IMG/VR virus record: IMGVR_UViG_3300036766_000359 | Coordinates: 128,973 to 192,972 of that record | Source: a virus | Length of the DNA stretch: 64,000 nt | Direction: 5' to 3' (one strand) | In this document: in pieces, positions 4,196 through 63,451 of the stretch | Numbering within the stretch: position 1 is the stretch's first letter | Layout: each line of letters begins with the position of its first letter | The notes under the pieces: generated by a model | The model's input: only the letters and a program-made list of their open reading frames with translations | Database searches by the model: none | Told to the model about the DNA's origin: nothing | Position numbers and translations under genes: made by a program

Positions 4196-4221
4196 GGCCC
4201 CCGTCCGAAAGGGCGGGGGCC
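4196..4221 (+). terminator. GC-rich hairpin after A2
   Basis: GGCCCCCGTCC-GAAA-GGGCGGGGGCC. Confidence 0.6.
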
Positions 4222-4240
4222 TTCCCTTTAGGGAGGGCTC

Positions 4241-4459
4241 GTGATGTTTGTTTGCACTGAGTGCTCGAAAAACTTAAAAAACAAAGAGCGCGTGTTTAGC
4301 GGCACCAATTGGTGCCGTGCGTGCGTGCATGCAGAGTCCCAACGGTCAATACGTGAGGATTCCGTGCAGGGGGCTGCTATTTGGTTCCGAAGCCGCCCTG
4401 CCAGGTACATGCTTCAACCGGAGCAGTACGAGGTTTTTGGATACAAGAAAAAAGTGTAA
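4241..4459 (+). CDS. small Zn-finger-like protein
   Basis: CTEC...WCRAC; GGAGG RBS. Confidence 0.55.
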   Translation: MMFVCTECSKNLKNKERVFSGTNWCRACVHAESQRSIREDSVQGAAIWFRSRPARYMLQPEQYEVFGYKKKV

Positions 4460-5915: not shown

Positions 5916-6079
5916 TCGCACGTACGGAGCAAAAGTTCGCATTTCCGCTCCGTACATCCTTCAAACAAGAAGGCAAAACCACATGATGATGTAGAAGACA
6001 TGATAAAGCCGCGAGGGCGAAACCCATGCACTTCCTTGTGCATGTCCGAGAACATCGACTTCAATGATTCCAATTTCAT
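5912..6079 (-). CDS. hypothetical protein (SDMHKEVHGFRPR)
   Basis: promoter motif 6100-6124 (-), GGAGG RBS. Confidence 0.55.
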   Translation of the reverse strand: MKLESLKSMFSDMHKEVHGFRPRGFIMSSTSSCGFAFLFEGCTERKCELLLRTCE

Positions 6080-6160
6080 CTTGCTGCCTCCACCCACCCG
6101 TACGTGTTGCGGATTCAAGTTTCCGTCGCTGCTTCAGCGTTCATAAGGGAGCCAACCGAT

Positions 6161-31865: not shown

Positions 31866-32450
31866 GTGGACATGGGTAAAGATATCCGTCATATGCAGCA
31901 AATGTGCGATCTTCTGGAATTCCACGCACGTGCTGGGCATGTCTCCTCTCGCTATTACGAGAGACATGCCCAGCTGAGCCTGCGACCGCACTCAACGTAT
32001 GGTAGTCAAAACCGAGGTATCGCGAGAGATCCGAACACTCCTATTGACGTCTTGGTCAAGTTATCCACTGACCAGGACCCGAATGTTCGTATCGAAGTAG
32101 CAAAATTCGCGTTCTCACGTCCCTGCGGTAACGAAGCATTCAGTGAGACTCTCGTTAAAACCCTGGTCAATATGTTGTCGATCGACCGAGACCCGTCTGT
32201 TCGTTATCATGCAGCCGCAAATCCCTGCATACCTGTCGAGACCTTGACCGAGTTATCTGCTTCCAAAGATGCATACGTTCGTCAAGGCGTGGCGATAAAC
32301 CCGAGCACGCCTGTCGATATCTTGAGCACGTTGTCCAACGATAACGACGCATACGTTCGTATTCACGTGTCCGCAAACTCCAAAACTCCTTATGAAGTCT
32401 TACTTTATCTAGAGGCACTTGAAGCTATATACGACGTGACGGATAGTTGA
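31866..32450 (+). CDS. LRV/HEAT-like repeat protein with tag (IYDVTDS)
   Basis: repeats L..D....VR..VA.NP.TP; promoter motif 31820-31844; start uncertain. Confidence 0.7.
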   Translation: MDMGKDIRHMQQMCDLLEFHARAGHVSSRYYERHAQLSLRPHSTYGSQNRGIARDPNTPIDVLVKLSTDQDPNVRIEVAKFAFSRPCGNEAFSETLVKTLVNMLSIDRDPSVRYHAAANPCIPVETLTELSASKDAYVRQGVAINPSTPVDILSTLSNDNDAYVRIHVSANSKTPYEVLLYLEALEAIYDVTDS

Positions 32451-32464
32451 AATTGGAGCAAACT

Positions 32465-53541: not shown

Positions 53542-53670
53542 ATCTATACTCTTTCGTTGTAAATTAATTGTTTGGTGACGTATAAAGGGAAACGCCTACA
53601 ATGACATACATGAAACTAAACCAGTTACGAATAAAACAGAACATGAATGAAAAATTGAATAAAGTTAGCA

Positions 53671-53964
53671 ATGATCTCTATTGAGGACATAGCTGATACC
53701 GAGGTCCTTGACAAGGAACTATGGGATATCCCAGGACGGCAGCGCGTGCAGTTTCGCAAGGATCTTCGGGCGCGTGGGTTTGAGCTTGCGCGAGAGTGCT
53801 GGTGTCACCCAGCTCATTGGCGCGTAGAGGAATATGACTTTGGTCCTGAAAGGGGTCGATACTGCGTGATTTCCGAGGCGTACGTACCACTCACAGCGGC
53901 GGCAAAAATGTGGCGTAAAAAAGTGATCGCTGAATGGAAGGAACAAGATGGGACGAACACTTAA
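53671..53964 (+). CDS. hypothetical protein
   Basis: ORF track. Confidence 0.55.
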   Translation: MISIEDIADTEVLDKELWDIPGRQRVQFRKDLRARGFELARECWCHPAHWRVEEYDFGPERGRYCVISEAYVPLTAAAKMWRKKVIAEWKEQDGTNT

Positions 53965-54847
53965 ACGAGTACCGATGGATTTTAACTGGCCGCTTGGCCA
54001 GGTTTGGGGCGGGTATATAAATCCGTACTACGCGCAGTCAACACCGTGCCCCGAGTGTGATGGCGCTGGCGGTTCGAAGGAATACCGGCATTTCTACGAG
54101 CAGTGGTACGGCAACGCGCCGTTTGATCCTGTCGCCTACGGCGCTACTCCGTTATCCTTGAACAGCGCACATCTGCTGAGAATCGCGGAACATCAATGTG
54201 AACGCACGCCTGATTACTACGGCACCGGGGAGTACGCCGTGCGTCGCGAAGTTCGTAGGCTTTACAACCTGTGGCGTAACCAGTGGACGCATCACTTGAT
54301 CCAAGCCGACGTGGATGCGCTCTTGGAAGCGGGGCGTTTGATGGACTTCACTCACGTGCCTCGTACGGACGAGCAGCGGGAGATCGTGCGGGCCAAGATC
54401 GCAGCGGGCGGTAACTCTTGGTTGCCTGAGCCCAGCGGCTATCGGCCCACTGCTTATGAAGTCAACGAGTGGTCCTTGGACGGCATGGCACACGACGGGC
54501 TCAACGCTTATGTGTGTTGCCGAGCACGTTGTGCTCGTGAAGGCGTGCCTGATAAATGCCAGCGTTGCAAAGATGAAGGCCAGTTCTGGCCTACGCCTGA
54601 GATCGAGCGTTTGTACGAGGCTTGGTCGGAGACAGAGCCGCCCACTGGCGAAGGTTACCAGCTCTGGGAGACAACCTCGGAGGGCTCACCCAAGTCGCCT
54701 GTGTTCACATCAATAGAGGAGCTGTGCGCGTGGTGTGCGGACAATGCGACCACGTTCGCCAGCTTCAAAGCGAGTGCTGATGAATGGCGCAAGATGCTCG
54801 ACGAAGACTTCGTGCACCACACGACCGGTCACATGGTGTTTATCTAA
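53948..54847 (+). CDS. hypothetical phage protein
   Basis: MGR..KRVP.DF.WP start; GEGYQLWETTSEGSP.SPVF tail; two CxxC. Confidence 0.75.
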   Translation: MGRTLKRVPMDFNWPLGQVWGGYINPYYAQSTPCPECDGAGGSKEYRHFYEQWYGNAPFDPVAYGATPLSLNSAHLLRIAEHQCERTPDYYGTGEYAVRREVRRLYNLWRNQWTHHLIQADVDALLEAGRLMDFTHVPRTDEQREIVRAKIAAGGNSWLPEPSGYRPTAYEVNEWSLDGMAHDGLNAYVCCRARCAREGVPDKCQRCKDEGQFWPTPEIERLYEAWSETEPPTGEGYQLWETTSEGSPKSPVFTSIEELCAWCADNATTFASFKASADEWRKMLDEDFVHHTTGHMVFI

Positions 54848-55069: not shown

Positions 55070-55135
55070 CAGAACATTTTCGTAAATTTCGTAATAAAAT
55101 TTGTACCGGTTGGTGTAGAATTTAAAATGGACGCT

Positions 55136-55278
55136 TGTAAGAGATTGCTGTCGCTGAAATTGGGTCGCCTCCACGGCCTAAAGGCGAGGTGTGAACAACA
55201 CGCTCGCCAAGTAGATGTGAAAACATCTACGTTAACCTTCGGGTTAGATTTCATCCTGGGCAACAGCAATCTCTTACA
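55136..55278 (+). ncRNA. candidate tracrRNA/scaffold RNA for the type V effector
   Basis: 16-bp terminal inverted repeat, GAAA and UUCG tetraloop hairpins, 11-nt anti-repeat ATTTCATCCTG (55248-55258) plus CTCCA (55169-55173) complementary to the repeat. Confidence 0.65.
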
Positions 55279-55301
55279 GGTGTTCAGTGTGAAGAGGTAG
55301 T

Positions 55302-56870
55302 ATGACTGAACGAAATGCTTGTCGCAATTGTGGTATTATAAAGGCAGACGGGCGGTGTCCATCATGCATCGTCACGGCTGTGCTTATGGAGATCGTGAAA
55401 CCCACATCAGAAAACTGGGACGATTTCGGAGATCAACTTCGCGGTCTTCGAAGTCTCACTCATCGAATGCTTAATGCTGCGATGATTGGCCTTGTGTCTG
55501 ATCTTCACAATCGGGAAAGTAAGAAGGATTGTGCCGGTTTCACCGATTTAAGTTTTTGGCGAGAAGTTGATCTCCATAATCGTGACACAAGTCAGGATAT
55601 TGACTCAGGTCAGAGCACTTATAAGCATATTAATGCTGAACTCAGATCCTATTCTGCTTGGTGCGCTGGTCAACGTCAACAGAAACAAGAGGCTTTGGAT
55701 TCTAGTCAACTGGCATTATTGAAAGCTCGGCCAGGTAAAAATAAGGAAAAGTTGACTGCGGACGTCACTCGTTTTGACAACGAGGTGAAAAGACTTGCTT
55801 CCCGTGAAAACTTGGCGTCTACCATGTCGATGAGCATGGTTGCCTGCCTCGGCAAAACAGCTGACGATAAATTCAGACAGTGGCTAAAAGTTCGGATCGA
55901 AGAACGTCTTCCCATGTATAAGAAGAAGTCTCCGATCATGCTTAATAATATGGACGTCAGGATTCAACTTATTGATAAGTCATCCGTTCAAATGAGTTTG
56001 AAGCTCCGTAGTAAGGGTACAACTCATGTTATTGCATTACCCGTGAGTGGGTCAGCATGGCAAGCGATGCGCTTGGTTGCGTCAGGTGCGGCCAAACATG
56101 GAGCCGGTAAAATCACTTACGACGAAGCTAAGAAGAAATGGTTTCTACGTTTGACGATCATCCGTCCACGTCCACAACGTCCACCCATGAACTCCGATGT
56201 GGTTTTAGCGGTAAATCGTGGTCGCAACAATTTCTTATATGCAATTTCTAATGACGGGCGTACTTCCCGGGTCATATGGCCTGGTAATGATATTCTTCAG
56301 TTCAAAAAGAGCATCCGGGCTCGAACACTGGACCTGAAACGGATGCGTCACCATCGTGGCAGTGGTGCTCATGGACACGGACGTGATCGATTTTTCGCGT
56401 CTGAAACCAGACTCAAAGACTACGAAATAAATTTCGTTAGAACTCTTTGCCAAAGAGCTGCGGCTGCACTGGATCAGCAAGCTCGAGAAATTGGTGCCGG
56501 GACTATAGTCATCGAAGACTTTAACACAATTGATTCAGAAGACCTTCGTTATGTTATGAGTTGGCCATGGTATCAACTCAAACAGGCAATCGCCTGGATG
56601 TGTGAGAAAACTGGTCGTACACTCGTTGAAGTGCCTAGTGAGTATATCAGTTCTGAGTGCCCGAATTGCGGGAATCGGGATGTTAGCCAAGTTAATCATC
56701 TTGGAATATTTCATTGTAAAGGGCACTGCACTGGATATAAGAATGGGTTCAGTCGCGAATCAGATTTCGTGGCTTGTTATACAATGTTGCGACGATCCAA
56801 TGTTGATATGTCAGGTTGGGATCGTTACTTCAAAATTACGGATAAAATCTCAGCAGAAGCAGCAGAATAA
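55302..56870 (+). CDS. TnpB/Cas12f-like type V effector, RuvC-I Asp replaced by Asn (putative nuclease-dead)
   Basis: VLAVNRG (N305), IVIEDF (E405), CPNCG...C...C Zn finger, RESDF.AC (D488); WED-like KKWFLRLTI; adjacent CRISPR array. Confidence 0.85.
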   Translation: MTERNACRNCGIIKADGRCPSCIVTAVLMEIVKPTSENWDDFGDQLRGLRSLTHRMLNAAMIGLVSDLHNRESKKDCAGFTDLSFWREVDLHNRDTSQDIDSGQSTYKHINAELRSYSAWCAGQRQQKQEALDSSQLALLKARPGKNKEKLTADVTRFDNEVKRLASRENLASTMSMSMVACLGKTADDKFRQWLKVRIEERLPMYKKKSPIMLNNMDVRIQLIDKSSVQMSLKLRSKGTTHVIALPVSGSAWQAMRLVASGAAKHGAGKITYDEAKKKWFLRLTIIRPRPQRPPMNSDVVLAVNRGRNNFLYAISNDGRTSRVIWPGNDILQFKKSIRARTLDLKRMRHHRGSGAHGHGRDRFFASETRLKDYEINFVRTLCQRAAAALDQQAREIGAGTIVIEDFNTIDSEDLRYVMSWPWYQLKQAIAWMCEKTGRTLVEVPSEYISSECPNCGNRDVSQVNHLGIFHCKGHCTGYKNGFSRESDFVACYTMLRRSNVDMSGWDRYFKITDKISAEAAE

Positions 56871-56877
56871 AGGTAAT

Positions 56878-57471
56878 ATGAAAACAAACACTGAAATTAG
56901 TCAAAAAGATACTCAACTACTCAACAAGATCGTCATTGATCTTCAGCGAGTCAAAAACCTTAATGACAAGGCGGATATCGAGTTTTTTCTGAAACTACGT
57001 GATATATCGATTAAGCATAAGGAGTTAATTGAACGCGGGCATGGATCTGTGTTCAGTTTTTTCAGCTCAAAGGGCCTGAGTCCCGCCCCTCAGTTCAAGA
57101 GCTTCTTGAGGGGTCTCTCCTTCATTGATGATCCGACAGCCAAGAAAGTAGGTCTATCGGTAGTCATGGCATTGGCTAAGACTCAGCATAAAAAACAAGT
57201 TCATGAAGTCGTGCGCTTGGCACTCGAGCATTTCAGTGCTCACTCAGTTCAACCGAACGATCGCCAAGCAAAAGCGATCATGATGACGGCTGGAGCCCGA
57301 GAAATCATTGCGCGGGGACCAACGATCGCGTCTCAACTTCAGCGACGCATCAGTCAGCTTGAAGCTGAAAATGAACAACTTCGCGCGGATCTCAGATCTG
57401 AGCGTCGTCTTAAGGTTCAGTTTGAGCGTCGTCTTGCTCAGTATGAAAAGTCCGGCAAACGCGCTGCATGA
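56878..57471 (+). CDS. unknown 197-aa protein between effector and array; C-terminal coiled coil
   Basis: starts 7 nt after effector stop with AAGG RBS. Confidence 0.7.
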   Translation: MKTNTEISQKDTQLLNKIVIDLQRVKNLNDKADIEFFLKLRDISIKHKELIERGHGSVFSFFSSKGLSPAPQFKSFLRGLSFIDDPTAKKVGLSVVMALAKTQHKKQVHEVVRLALEHFSAHSVQPNDRQAKAIMMTAGAREIIARGPTIASQLQRRISQLEAENEQLRADLRSERRLKVQFERRLAQYEKSGKRAA

Positions 57472-57661
57472 TGCGAGAGACTCTACGGCACTTCATATGC
57501 CGTAATCGCTCGCACGTTTGAAGTTCTTTGACATTTTAATAATCAGGCTATGAAACCTCATAAACCGGTGGAGACGGTTTATGAGGTTCAGAATTTCAGT
57601 TGAACTGAAACCGTGAAACAGCGTGATTGTAAGTTTGAAATCGAAGTGTACTGATGGCACT

Positions 57662-58781
57662 GTCGAAATCGAGATCAGAACAGGATGAAATTGGAGCAAA
57701 ACGATTGGCCACATTTAATTGGACTAACGACCAAGTCGAAATCGAGATCAGAACAGGATGAAATTGGAGCAGGGCATGGTTTTTCATACCTATACTTTTT
57801 AAGTCGAAATCGAGATCAGAACAGGATGAAATTGGAGCGACGGACGACAGGGGTAGTGAGGCCCAACGGGATATCAGTCGAAATCGAGATCAGAACAGGA
57901 TGAAATTGGAGCCGCTGCCAACCATCTATCAAATCTCACGACTTCTAGGAGCGTCGAAATCGAGATCAGAACAGGATGAAATTGGAGCAGCCACTTGTTC
58001 CGAGCAACCAAATAATGGGTCCCGACGTCGAAATCGAGATCAGAACAGGATGAAATTGGAGCGCTTTGCGGAGCAGACCGTCGCGGTGGGCGCGGTGATG
58101 TCGAAATCGAGATCAGAACAGGATGAAATTGGAGCCTCGTCGGGGTGGTCAACCACTCCACGCGCGATCGCATCGGGATCAGAACAGGATGAAATTGGAG
58201 CAGGCAGTCGCTCATGAGTTCGTCGATTGTGCGCCCAGTCGAAATCGAGATCTCACCACAGCGATAGCCAGGTCGAAATCGAGATCAGAACAGGATGAAA
58301 TTGGAGCTCGTAGACAGCCTGGAGCCCGTGTCGAAATCGAGATCAGAACAGGATGAAATTGGAGCAGGCGTCTGCCAAGGAACGTCGGAATCGAGATTAA
58401 AACAGGATGAAATTGGAGCAACCGCGTGTCCAATGGCTGTGACCGCAGGTCGGAGGGTCGAAATCGAGATCATAACAGGATGAAATTGGAGCCTGCGCGA
58501 GCAAACGCCAGTCCTTGGTGACGACAAAGGTTGAAGTCAAGATAATAACATAATGAAATTGGAGCGCCTTGTTGATGGTTAGGTCGATTGGATCGGCCTG
58601 CGTCGAAATCGAGATCAGAACAGGATGAAATTGGAGCATACAGTGGCGCGTCATCGCCCCAATGCTGCTCGTCGTCGAAATCAAGATCAGAACAGGATGA
58701 AATTGGAGCTAGTGCTGAGAGAATCGTTGGCGGATCAGATGAGCTGTTGAAATCGAGATCAGAACAGGATGAAATTGGAGC
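57662..58781 (+). CRISPR. CRISPR array, 17 repeats (one truncated), 16 spacers of 18-40 nt
   Basis: 36-nt repeat GTCGAAATCGAGATCAGAACAGGATGAAATTGGAGC; degenerate copies accumulate on the right, so leader is on the left. Confidence 0.97.
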
Positions 58782-61298: not shown

Positions 61299-61865
61299 TT
61301 ATGCGACACCGAGTGCTATAGCAACCATGTCTGCGATACCGTCAAGTCCGTTATCTGACGGATCACCGACGAATCCTGATGGCTGAATGTGCCATTTTGA
61401 GAAATATTCTTTCAAGACGTCATCCGTTCCATCGATAAGTGGTATCCCCATGGCCTGAGCTTTCATTTGAAATACAAGATGAGTTGAGTCAAGGTCGTCT
61501 ATCAGTACGAAGTTGTTTTCTCCCCTTCCAACTTTTCCAATCAGACTTTCGCGAGGAAAAATCTCATCAACATCAAATCCGAAAGCTTCGGATATCGTGT
61601 TAGCATATTCAGACACTGAATGAGTAAGAAGATAAATTGGACCGAAATTAAAACCCCGTAACGATTTTAACAATTCAATCGCTCCGGGTCTAAGCATCAC
61701 TCCATATTTCCCGATTTGCAACTTTTCACCGGGATAATTGGTGAAAGCCATCACGGATGCTCGGTCGTCTAACATAACAGTATGAATGAGTGTCTCGTCT
61801 AAATCAACATAGACACACGTTCCTATGCTCATTGCTACTCTCGCCGCTATCTTGATGAAATTCAT
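61299..61865 (-). CDS. HAD-family phosphatase, FCP1/NIF-like
   Basis: [11 protein letters not shown] (DxDxT), LRPGA..LL, YLLTHS...YA, LIDD. Confidence 0.75.
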
Positions 61866-63451
61866 ACCGGTGGAACGGATGAATATTGAACAGTTTGATC
61901 AGACGTGTTGTTCATATTGATCGTGTAGTATCTGAAGTTAATTCCGTTCGTAGTAAACTTAATCACTAACTTTCCGGAGAGCGTCAAATACATCGCCATC
62001 TGACCAGCACCCGGATTCGTTGGAGGTCCGAAAGACGGATTCATGGCGATCGTGGACAACGACCTGAAGTTGGACGCTGATAGATAACCGAACTCGTCAA
62101 AGAAGAACCCGAAACCGTTGGACATCGTCCAGCGCATCGTCTTTCCTGACTGGTCATCTATCTCGAGCCCGGTCACACCGTCGCCATTGTACTGCATTTT
62201 TAGACCGGCTAGCGGTGACTCACCACCAACCTGTCCATCTCGAGTCCAGTGCACTCCTCCGTTATGGATTCGAAGTGACATTCCTGAATAAACATTCGGG
62301 TGTCCAATGCCAATTTGTCCGAATATTCCGTCCGAAGGGGTGTTTCCAGAATAACACCAAATGTAGCGTGGCCCAGCAGTCGGGATACCAACCGCGTAAT
62401 CGAACACTGCGGCTTGTCCAGTTATCGGACCCGTCATTCCGGTTGGGGCATATAAGATAGCAGCCGGGTTAGCAGGCCCGATTTGTCCAGTTGGTCCTAC
62501 GGGTCCAGTTGGTCCTGCTGCCCCGGTGGCTCCTCGTACACCAGTCGGTCCTTGTATGCCGGTGGCTCCCGGTGGTCCTCCTGCGGGTCCTGTCGGACCA
62601 ATCGGCCCCTGAAGTCCTCCTGCGGGCCCTGTCGGCCCCCGGGGCCCTGTCGGCCCTTGGGGCCCTGTCGGCCCTACTTGCCCGGTGAACCCGACCCCTG
62701 TGGCTCCTTTTGGTCCTGTTGGACCCGTCGAGCCTTTTGGTCCTGTTGGACCCGTAGGACCTAAAGGACCCGTAGGACCTAACGGCCCTCCTAATGGTCC
62801 TGTAGCCCCCGTGGCTCCTATCGGACCCGTGGGGCCCGTTGGTCCTTGAGGTCCCGTGGCTCCTGTGGCTCCTTGAGGTCCCGGTGGCCCTCCTAACGGT
62901 CCTGTGGCTCCCGTTACGCCCTGGGGTCCTTGAATGCCCTGTGCTCCCGTTACTCCGGGAAAACCAATCGGGCCGTTAGGTCCTGTCGGTCCAAGCCCTC
63001 CCGTTGGTCCTTGCTGTCCGACGGGACCGGTTGAGCCTTGCGGACCGATTAACCCGACGGTTCCTGCTGGTCCAACCGTTCCTGCTGGTCCAACCGTTCC
63101 TGTTGGTCCAATGGGTCCTGGAATGAGAATAGTTCCTGAAGCTCCTCCCGTAAGAAGGACTGCGGAGTTCACATGAGCAAGATCGACCGGTAATCCTTTT
63201 AGAAGAAGTGTTATGTAAAACGTGAAGCTTTGTCTTAGGCCCTCAGCACGTGCATCAATTAATGCAAGTGACCCTATTTCGTATAACTCCGGGTTCAGTC
63301 CTACGGCTTCAGCGAGTTGGTTGTATATGGTTGGTTGTGCGAAAACTAGTGTAGGGCTACTGATGCCCTCATCAGTTATCATTTCCGCAACAACCCGATA
63401 GACGTCCGGGATGTCTTGTACGACTTTTTGAACAACGACTGATGTGGACAT
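61862..63451 (-). CDS. collagen-like (Gly-X-Y) protein, probable virion fibre
   Basis: more than 200 aa of GPTG/GATG/GPQG triplets between globular ends. Confidence 0.85.

Follow-up and report, generated by a model that had tools for sequence, protein, structure and literature searches.

A candidate tracrRNA with a bipartite anti-repeat in the leader of a Cas12f-like effector gene of a huge phage

A putative tracrRNA gene in a compact phage CRISPR locus

The 64-kb stretch of viral DNA analyzed here (hereafter, the window) very probably carries, at 55130-55285 on the plus strand, the tracrRNA gene of a Cas12f-like CRISPR system borne by the phage. From sequence comparisons, we put the probability of this reading at about 85%. 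A tracrRNA with a bipartite anti-repeat had already been proposed at this site in a first-pass annotation made from the letters of the window, and the proposal held up well: the same fold was found at a homologous locus (L006), the loop of the first hairpin matches the end of the local repeat in every element compared, and the long anti-repeat tracks each repeat. With its variant features, the element is supported as a new Cas12f-type tracrRNA, which would serve a clade of phage effectors that lack the RuvC-I aspartate.

The window is the final 64 kb of a 193-kb IMG/VR virus record with a completeness estimate of 45%, and its source is therefore a huge phage. A compact CRISPR locus lies close to its right end, with all parts on the plus strand. 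An intergenic region of 232 nt (55070-55301) holds the candidate tracrRNA element (55130-55285; 143-156 nt, with four hairpins and a closing stem) and is followed by the gene of the Cas12f-like effector (55302..56870; 522 aa), which contains a Pfam Cas12f1-like TNB domain, by an accessory ORF (56878..57471; 197 aa) that is kept beside the effector in related loci, by an array leader of 190 nt (57472-57661) and by the CRISPR array (57662..58781), consisting of sixteen 36-nt repeats and one truncated copy. The element is single-copy in the record, and so is the array. The repeat of this array, as judged from its sequence, has no hairpin of its own, as is expected of a tracrRNA-dependent system.

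Near-identical variants of the phage (L001, L002) differ from the window in the effector-proximal spacers (window 57698-57876) and have the distal ones in common. This places the leader at 57472-57661 and indicates that the array is read rightward, on the plus strand; the same differences point to recent spacer acquisition. No Cas1/Cas2-like protein was seen among the flanking ORFs scanned against Pfam.

Predicted fold of the element

The closing stem (P0, 'head-to-toe') had been described as a perfect pairing of TGTAAGAGATTGCTGT (55136-55151) with ACAGCAATCTCTTACA (55263-55278), and this exact reverse complementarity was recovered at the same coordinates. When G.U pairs are included, the stem reaches 22 bp, with its 5' strand at 55130..55151 (perfect over 16 bp from 55136) and its 3' strand at 55263..55284. 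Next after the stem come the effector SD, GAAGAGG, and then the effector ATG at 55302.

Enclosed by this stem, the three inner hairpins listed earlier are all present: H2 (55183..55208; GGCGAGG...CGCUCGCC), which is the most conserved part of the RNA family, H3 (55211..55230; GUAGAUGU-GAAA-ACAUCUAC in the RNA, GTAGATGT-GAAA-ACATCTAC in the DNA), identified from the fold, and H4 (55232..55247; UUAACC-UUCG-GGUUAG in the RNA, TTAACC-TTCG-GGTTAG in the DNA), identified from the fold and from a model-fitted alignment. A fourth hairpin, H1 (55160..55181), had been missed, together with the fact that CTCCA sits in a hairpin loop: the 6-nt loop of H1, CCUCCA (55168-55173), carries the short anti-repeat CUCCA (55169-55173). 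The remaining parts are a repeat-like segment, UGAAAUUGG (DNA TGAAATTGG; 55155..55163), equal to repeat nt 25-33, and the long anti-repeat, AUUUCAUCCUG, at 55248..55258.

The predicted fold of the plus-strand RNA has an energy of -82 kcal/mol, as compared with -39.9 +/- 3.9 kcal/mol in 200 shuffles (z -10.9). The H1 loop is predicted to be fully unpaired (P(unpaired) 1.00), and the long anti-repeat has a mean P(unpaired) of 0.78. A search of the element against Rfam matched no family at E <= 1; Rfam is not known to contain a Cas12f tracrRNA family.

Pairing with the CRISPR repeat

Both complementarities to the repeat that had been claimed for this region were confirmed. The long anti-repeat (DNA ATTTCATCCTG, 55248-55258) is an exact complement of repeat nt 20-30, and CTCCA (55169-55173) is complementary to TGGAG, repeat nt 31-35, at the 3' end of the repeat. 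The end of the repeat, ...CAGGAUGAAAU-UGGAG-C, is thus the partner of both anti-repeats, and the two target sites are contiguous on it, ending one base before the spacer. A short 5-bp anti-repeat is therefore present in the form of the CUCCA loop complementary to UGGAG, the pseudoknot itself being a prediction, and a long one is present as well, though its duplex (11 bp, -13.8 kcal/mol) is shorter than in characterized Cas12f1 systems.

An exact 11-nt complement of the repeat within the element was obtained with 7 of 20000 shuffled repeats (P about 3.5e-4). Generic RNAduplex energies did not separate the real repeat from shuffled repeats (z -0.6), and other 11-12-nt complements to the repeat occur in the 64-kb window at 6069-6080 (+) and 32448-32459 (-). 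The significance of the pairing consequently rests on the length of the exact match, its position and the cross-locus covariation, and not on duplex energy. RNAcofold, which cannot place an intermolecular helix inside a closed multiloop, predicted no interaction between repeat and element; the complex is beyond the reach of pairing programs, given that the long stem encloses the anti-repeat in such a multiloop. No second anti-repeat of at least 9 nt was found between the effector and the array or in the leader (57472-57661).

Occurrence of the RNA in related loci

The effector homologues form a small family, of which P0003-P0013 are the 11 closest proteins. Loci for comparison were taken from scans of DNA collections (single metagenome and genome scans). 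These scans yielded three near-identical copies of the locus (L001-L003) and a few distant loci. A covariance-model search across homologous loci, proposed as a check in the first-pass annotation, was carried out with a model built solely from the fold of the window, and it gave a full-length match at L006:4832-4990 (38.1 bits, E 6.8e-8), the sole strong match beyond the near-identical copies. The matching stretch lies on the plus strand, directly before a 39%-identical effector.

In the model-fitted alignment to L006, 48 of the 54 pairs are kept, 26 of them via two-sided changes, at a sequence identity of 43%; in P0, 20 of the 22 pairs remain standard, and 15 are changed on both sides. The order of the fold is the same as in the window (long closing stem, four hairpins, anti-repeat), with a closing stem that is longer than that of the window and bulged. 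L006 has a repeat that differs from that of the window, and its anti-repeat, GCTCTGCATTCC, is exactly complementary to nt 20-31 of this local repeat (2 of 20000 shuffles); its first hairpin loop, ACUCCG, corresponds to a repeat tail of CGGAG. Virus Rctr197k (GenBank KX853510), with a 29%-identical effector, has a structured RNA between effector and array that contains the hairpin GGGCCC-CCCGCU-GGGCCC, with a repeat ending in GCGGG, and a second hairpin, GCGAGG...CGCUCGC, as elsewhere.

The H1-H2 motif was also run as a DNA pattern on IMG/VR, and the matches were then screened for adjoining effector homologues. Matches of the first scan were mostly due to chance; the single-sequence model recognized only L036, which is the L006 contig, among the motif-scan matches, and L067 (G001) was recognized only via its adjoining effector. 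Four phage records were added in this way, G001 (392 kb), G002 (298 kb, with two copies of the RNA), G003 and G004, so that the motif stands next to effector homologues in five further phage records, counting Virus Rctr197k.

The resulting comparative set is small, with seven independent loci (eight elements), and the pattern that led to several of them had been drawn from the first three. Within this set, 8/8 elements have H2 (GCGAG...CUCGC), at 3-4 nt beyond H1; MAFFT had misplaced it in a small initial alignment. Likewise, each of the eight elements has, in its H1 loop, a 5-mer complementary to the final 5-6 nt of the repeat at its own locus, by means of six different loop:tail pairs (CUCCA:UGGAG, CUCCG:CGGAG, CCCGC:GCGGG, the last of these twice, CCCGA:UCGGG, UUGGA:UCCAA and CCUGC:GCAGG), and the loop-closing pair of H1 covaries too (GC, UG, CG, UA, AU). 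When the loops were set against the repeats of other loci, 3 of 42 cross pairs were complementary.

The long anti-repeat was likewise found to be kept in homologous loci, in agreement with the original proposal: it is exact over 10-12 nt in the window (11), L006 (12), G003 (11) and G002 (10-11). The pairing is split into two shorter runs of 6 and 7 nt in L020, it is longer and bulged in G001 (as read by eye), and the longest run in G004 is 7 nt. The head-to-toe stem, 22 bp in the window and long and bulged in L006, has a 5-bp version in G003 and is absent from L020. As for its location, the window, L006 and G003 have the RNA 5' of the effector, and L020, G001 and G002b have it in the gap between effector and array; the G003 copy stops just before the effector SD at an intrinsic terminator of its own (a hairpin and a U-run). 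The RNA changes position and yet matches the local repeat, and it therefore behaves as a movable trans-acting RNA gene and not as a UTR feature.

At the related locus L005/L004, which also encodes a related effector, neither the covariance model nor inspection gave a clear copy of the RNA; a 10/11 anti-repeat-like run, found by eye, lies just before the start codon. The locus has a short, irregular array (L005:2915-3187 and L004:2866-3138) with 36-nt repeats that are themselves hairpins (CCTGCAGCCGG...CCGGGTGCAGG), and it may represent a tracrRNA-independent or a decaying variant. L007, which also encodes a related effector, showed no clear copy of the RNA, no array and no room for the RNA. 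In L008, a 28%-identical relative on a contig too short for RNA comparison, the array lies upstream (L008:1-480), with a last repeat that abuts the start codon of the effector. The second tracrRNA copy of G002 (L186:7560-7797 on the minus strand, which corresponds to oriented positions 4205-4442 of G002) is located about 0.6-0.8 kb upstream of the open frame of the effector. A lone degenerate repeat and a fixed spacer-like sequence come after it, and the whole may form a unit with one guide and a regulatory target.

Transcription and alternative explanations

A copy of a phage-specific promoter motif, GTAAAT-N15-GTAC, which the first-pass annotation had not listed, is present at 55082..55106 on the plus strand, 24 nt before the closing stem. 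The general form of this motif, GBARRY-N15-GTAY, occurs 52 times in the window (3.05 +/- 1.76 expected). The first 35.7 kb contain 50 of these 52 copies, and the only two beyond are those at 53559-53583 and 55082-55106. No terminator-like site was found between the closing stem and the effector ORF, and a sigma-70 promoter scan upstream of the element gave nothing; the candidate TTGTAC-16-TAAAAT, which scores only 8/12, was dropped in favor of the phage motif. With a promoter motif upstream and no terminator, the simplest reading is that a single transcript is made, with the tracrRNA as leader of the effector mRNA, and the motif at 55082-55106 probably drives RNA and effector together.

This arrangement would also suit an element that is merely a cis-acting structure of the 5' leader, serving as an RNase III site or in stability or translational control, with only incidental complementarity to the repeat. 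Its place between promoter motif and effector SD in a terminator-free interval, a 22-bp stem long enough to be an RNase III substrate and the unexceptional duplex energy with the repeat are all compatible with such a role. However, in L020, G001 and G002b the homologous RNA is placed beyond the effector and beside the array, the RNA of G003 has its own terminator, and both loop and anti-repeat covary with each repeat, which would be needless in a pure UTR element. We consider an exclusively cis-acting leader improbable, whereas a cis role in addition to that of a tracrRNA is possible.

It is still less probable that the inverted repeat acts as DNA, either as a protein-binding palindrome or as a cruciform, or that the RNA derives from the minus strand. 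The perfect 16-bp inverted repeat is symmetric, and a good fold is predicted for the minus strand as well (-68 kcal/mol, z -8.0), but the plus strand is more stable by 14 kcal/mol because of the G.U pairs in the stem and in H1/H4, whose minus-strand counterparts are C.A. Among the near-identical variants, the element is polymorphic at a single position; this change, A55225G (L002), lies in H3 and turns a U-A pair into U.G, so that pairing is kept, and the change tolerated, on the plus-strand RNA only. Moreover, the plus-sense repeat is complementary only to the plus-strand RNA, the promoter motif is directed rightward, and L006 keeps the pairing of the stem and not its sequence, which fits an RNA and not a protein-binding site. 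Scarcely credible, finally, is the notion that the region encodes a 57-aa protein and that its structure is secondary. An ATG-initiated ORF of this length (55127-55300) does span the element, with its stop 1 nt short of the effector ATG, but its own ATG has no convincing SD, and the homologous stretch of L006 shares the reading frame of the effector instead of forming an ORF of its own, its read-through being rich in glycine, serine and arginine, as GC-rich non-coding DNA would be. In addition, conservation between window and L006 follows base pairs, as the two-sided changes and the low identity noted above indicate, and not codons. If translation began at an in-frame GTG of L006 (4812), which has a good SD, the RNA region there would be coding. 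RNA genes that overlap coding sequence are normal among TnpB systems, and this possible overlap is therefore not contrary to the RNA reading.

Proposed mode of action of the tracrRNA

For a tracrRNA encoded at 55130-55285, we envisage the following course. Transcription from the motif at 55082-55106 would probably yield the RNA as the 5' leader of the effector mRNA, and the RNA would fold into the 22-bp head-to-toe stem around the four hairpins. It would probably be freed from the mRNA by an enzyme, such as RNase III, that cuts within or close to the long stem. AUUUCAUCCUG would then pair with nt 20-30 of the crRNA repeat, forming the long repeat:anti-repeat stem, and the open H1 loop CUCCA would form a 5-bp pseudoknot with repeat nt 31-35, which end one base short of the spacer. 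This scaffold would be bound by the effector, which most likely acts as a dimer, as other Cas12f proteins do, and the spacer would serve as the guide. Expression of the RNA, its release from the mRNA, its binding by the effector and formation of the pseudoknot are all inferred from the features described above.

The first-pass annotation had further suggested that the repeat-like segment might pair with the anti-repeat when crRNA is absent, in a self-sequestering fold. This suggestion was borne out in part: an alternative helix is close in energy to the minimum-energy fold, and comparable pairing is predicted in L006 and G003, but the helix is weak, and the anti-repeat of the window is predicted to be about 78% unpaired. 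With a helix forced between UGAAAU (55155-55160) and AUUUCA (55248-55253), the fold had -80.7 kcal/mol as compared with -82.0 kcal/mol at the minimum (1.3 kcal/mol higher), and the helix alone, of 6 bp, contributed -2.3 kcal/mol. At L006, the segment AGAGC, which copies repeat nt 27-31, pairs at the inner end of the closing stem with the 5' part of the anti-repeat (mean P(unpaired) 0.49), and a 5-bp helix between the 5' end and the anti-repeat was predicted for G003. In these models, partial cover of the anti-repeat by the 5' end of the RNA itself is recurrent but weak, and a functional role for it appears somewhat doubtful. Tentatively, the closing stem could also have two jobs: its cleavage would free the tracrRNA and set the 5' end of the mRNA, and the repeat-like segment would partly cover the anti-repeat until the crRNA invades, with the result that scaffold supply, translation and crRNA loading would be coupled in a non-cutting phage system.

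The effector and its accessory protein

The best solved relative of the effector is AsCas12f (E 1e-30). In the window effector, the RuvC-I Asp is replaced by Asn305 (codon 56214-56216), and this position is also Asn in P0008 and L008 and is His in L006, L007, L020, G001, G002 and P0011. The RuvC-II Glu and the RuvC-III Asp are retained in the effectors with Asn or His at RuvC-I. In the G003 and G004 effectors, the RuvC-I position is Leu/Arg, the RuvC-II Glu is changed to Gln, and no RuvC-III segment aligns. These changes in the clade suggest RNA-guided binding without cleavage.

The 197-aa ORF has homologues in the same position at L006:6616-7176 (BLASTP E 3e-16) and L007:1661-2284 (E 1e-9), and it appears to be a conserved accessory gene of the system. 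In database searches with this ORF, no Pfam family matched, and the sole NCBIfam match was weak (E 0.048).

Comparison with known systems

Cas12f1 guides contain a long R/AR stem and a short R/AR pseudoknot of 5-7 bp, essential for AsCas12f1 (PMC11246509), and a guide-PK-stem core is conserved from TnpB to Cas12 (PMC10097598). The tracrRNAs of SpCas12f1 and AsCas12f1, of 153 and 169 nt, lie between cas12f1 and the array (PMC8548392). In general form, the phage RNA is like the Cas12f1 tracrRNAs (AsCas12f1, SpCas12f1, Un1Cas12f1), which are 150-170-nt multi-stem RNAs beside a miniature Cas12f gene and an array (PMC8548392). [quoted passage not shown] The differences concern location, stem lengths and effector. 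Whereas Cas12f1 tracrRNAs lie between cas12f and the array, the phage RNA lies upstream, in the effector leader behind a phage promoter, and its relatives show that a tracrRNA gene can relocate from the effector-array gap into the effector leader. The 22-bp closing stem is wholly inside the tracrRNA, the long duplex has only 11 bp, and the phage effector clade has Asn or His in place of the RuvC-I Asp. The H1-H2 part may resemble the Un1Cas12f1 tracrRNA.

The single guide RNAs of nuclease-dead dCas12f-sigmaE systems serve Cas12f-derived proteins that carry inactivating RuvC changes and bind DNA uncut (PMC13472631), a mode of action that is suggested for the phage clade as well; those systems have no tracrRNA-like species and mostly no arrays (PMC13472631), whereas the phage clade keeps a putative tracrRNA and an array with spacer turnover. 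In the omega/reRNA of TnpB (ISDra2), as in the proposed phage complex, nucleotides 5' of the guide pair with the 5'-proximal scaffold (PMC10097598). The ISDra2 omegaRNA differs in being a single molecule with a fixed guide and in its overlap with the 3' end of tnpB, whereas the phage scaffold is split from the array-encoded crRNAs. A further parallel is the tracr-L of Streptococcus pyogenes (type II), reportedly described by Workman et al. in 2021 as a natural single guide whose fold-back yields a working guide that represses the cas promoter. Its 5' part folds back on its own anti-repeat, as is predicted in part for the phage RNA, and both are encoded next to the effector promoter; in contrast, the fold-back of the phage RNA is weak (see above), and no guide-like target was found.

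The RNA would define the missing guide component for a CRISPR clade carried by huge phages. Together with the repeat register (nt 20-30 and nt 31-35) and the six covariation pairs, it would permit the design of a single-guide RNA and the reconstitution of the system, which would tell whether the system silences or cuts DNA.

Several minor features of the window were also recorded. The array leader contains a hairpin (57563-57589) with a 9-bp stem and the loop GUGGAGA, which holds UGGAG, the pentamer that the tracrRNA loop CUCCA would bind; about 0.2 occurrences are expected in the leader, and this one could be due to chance. A 299-aa gene at 53948-54847 is missing from the variants L001 and L002. 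Finally, a long run of 9-bp periodic GGN-CCN repeats at 62420-63120, within a minus-strand ORF (61862-63451), is consistent with a collagen-like Gly-X-Y protein.
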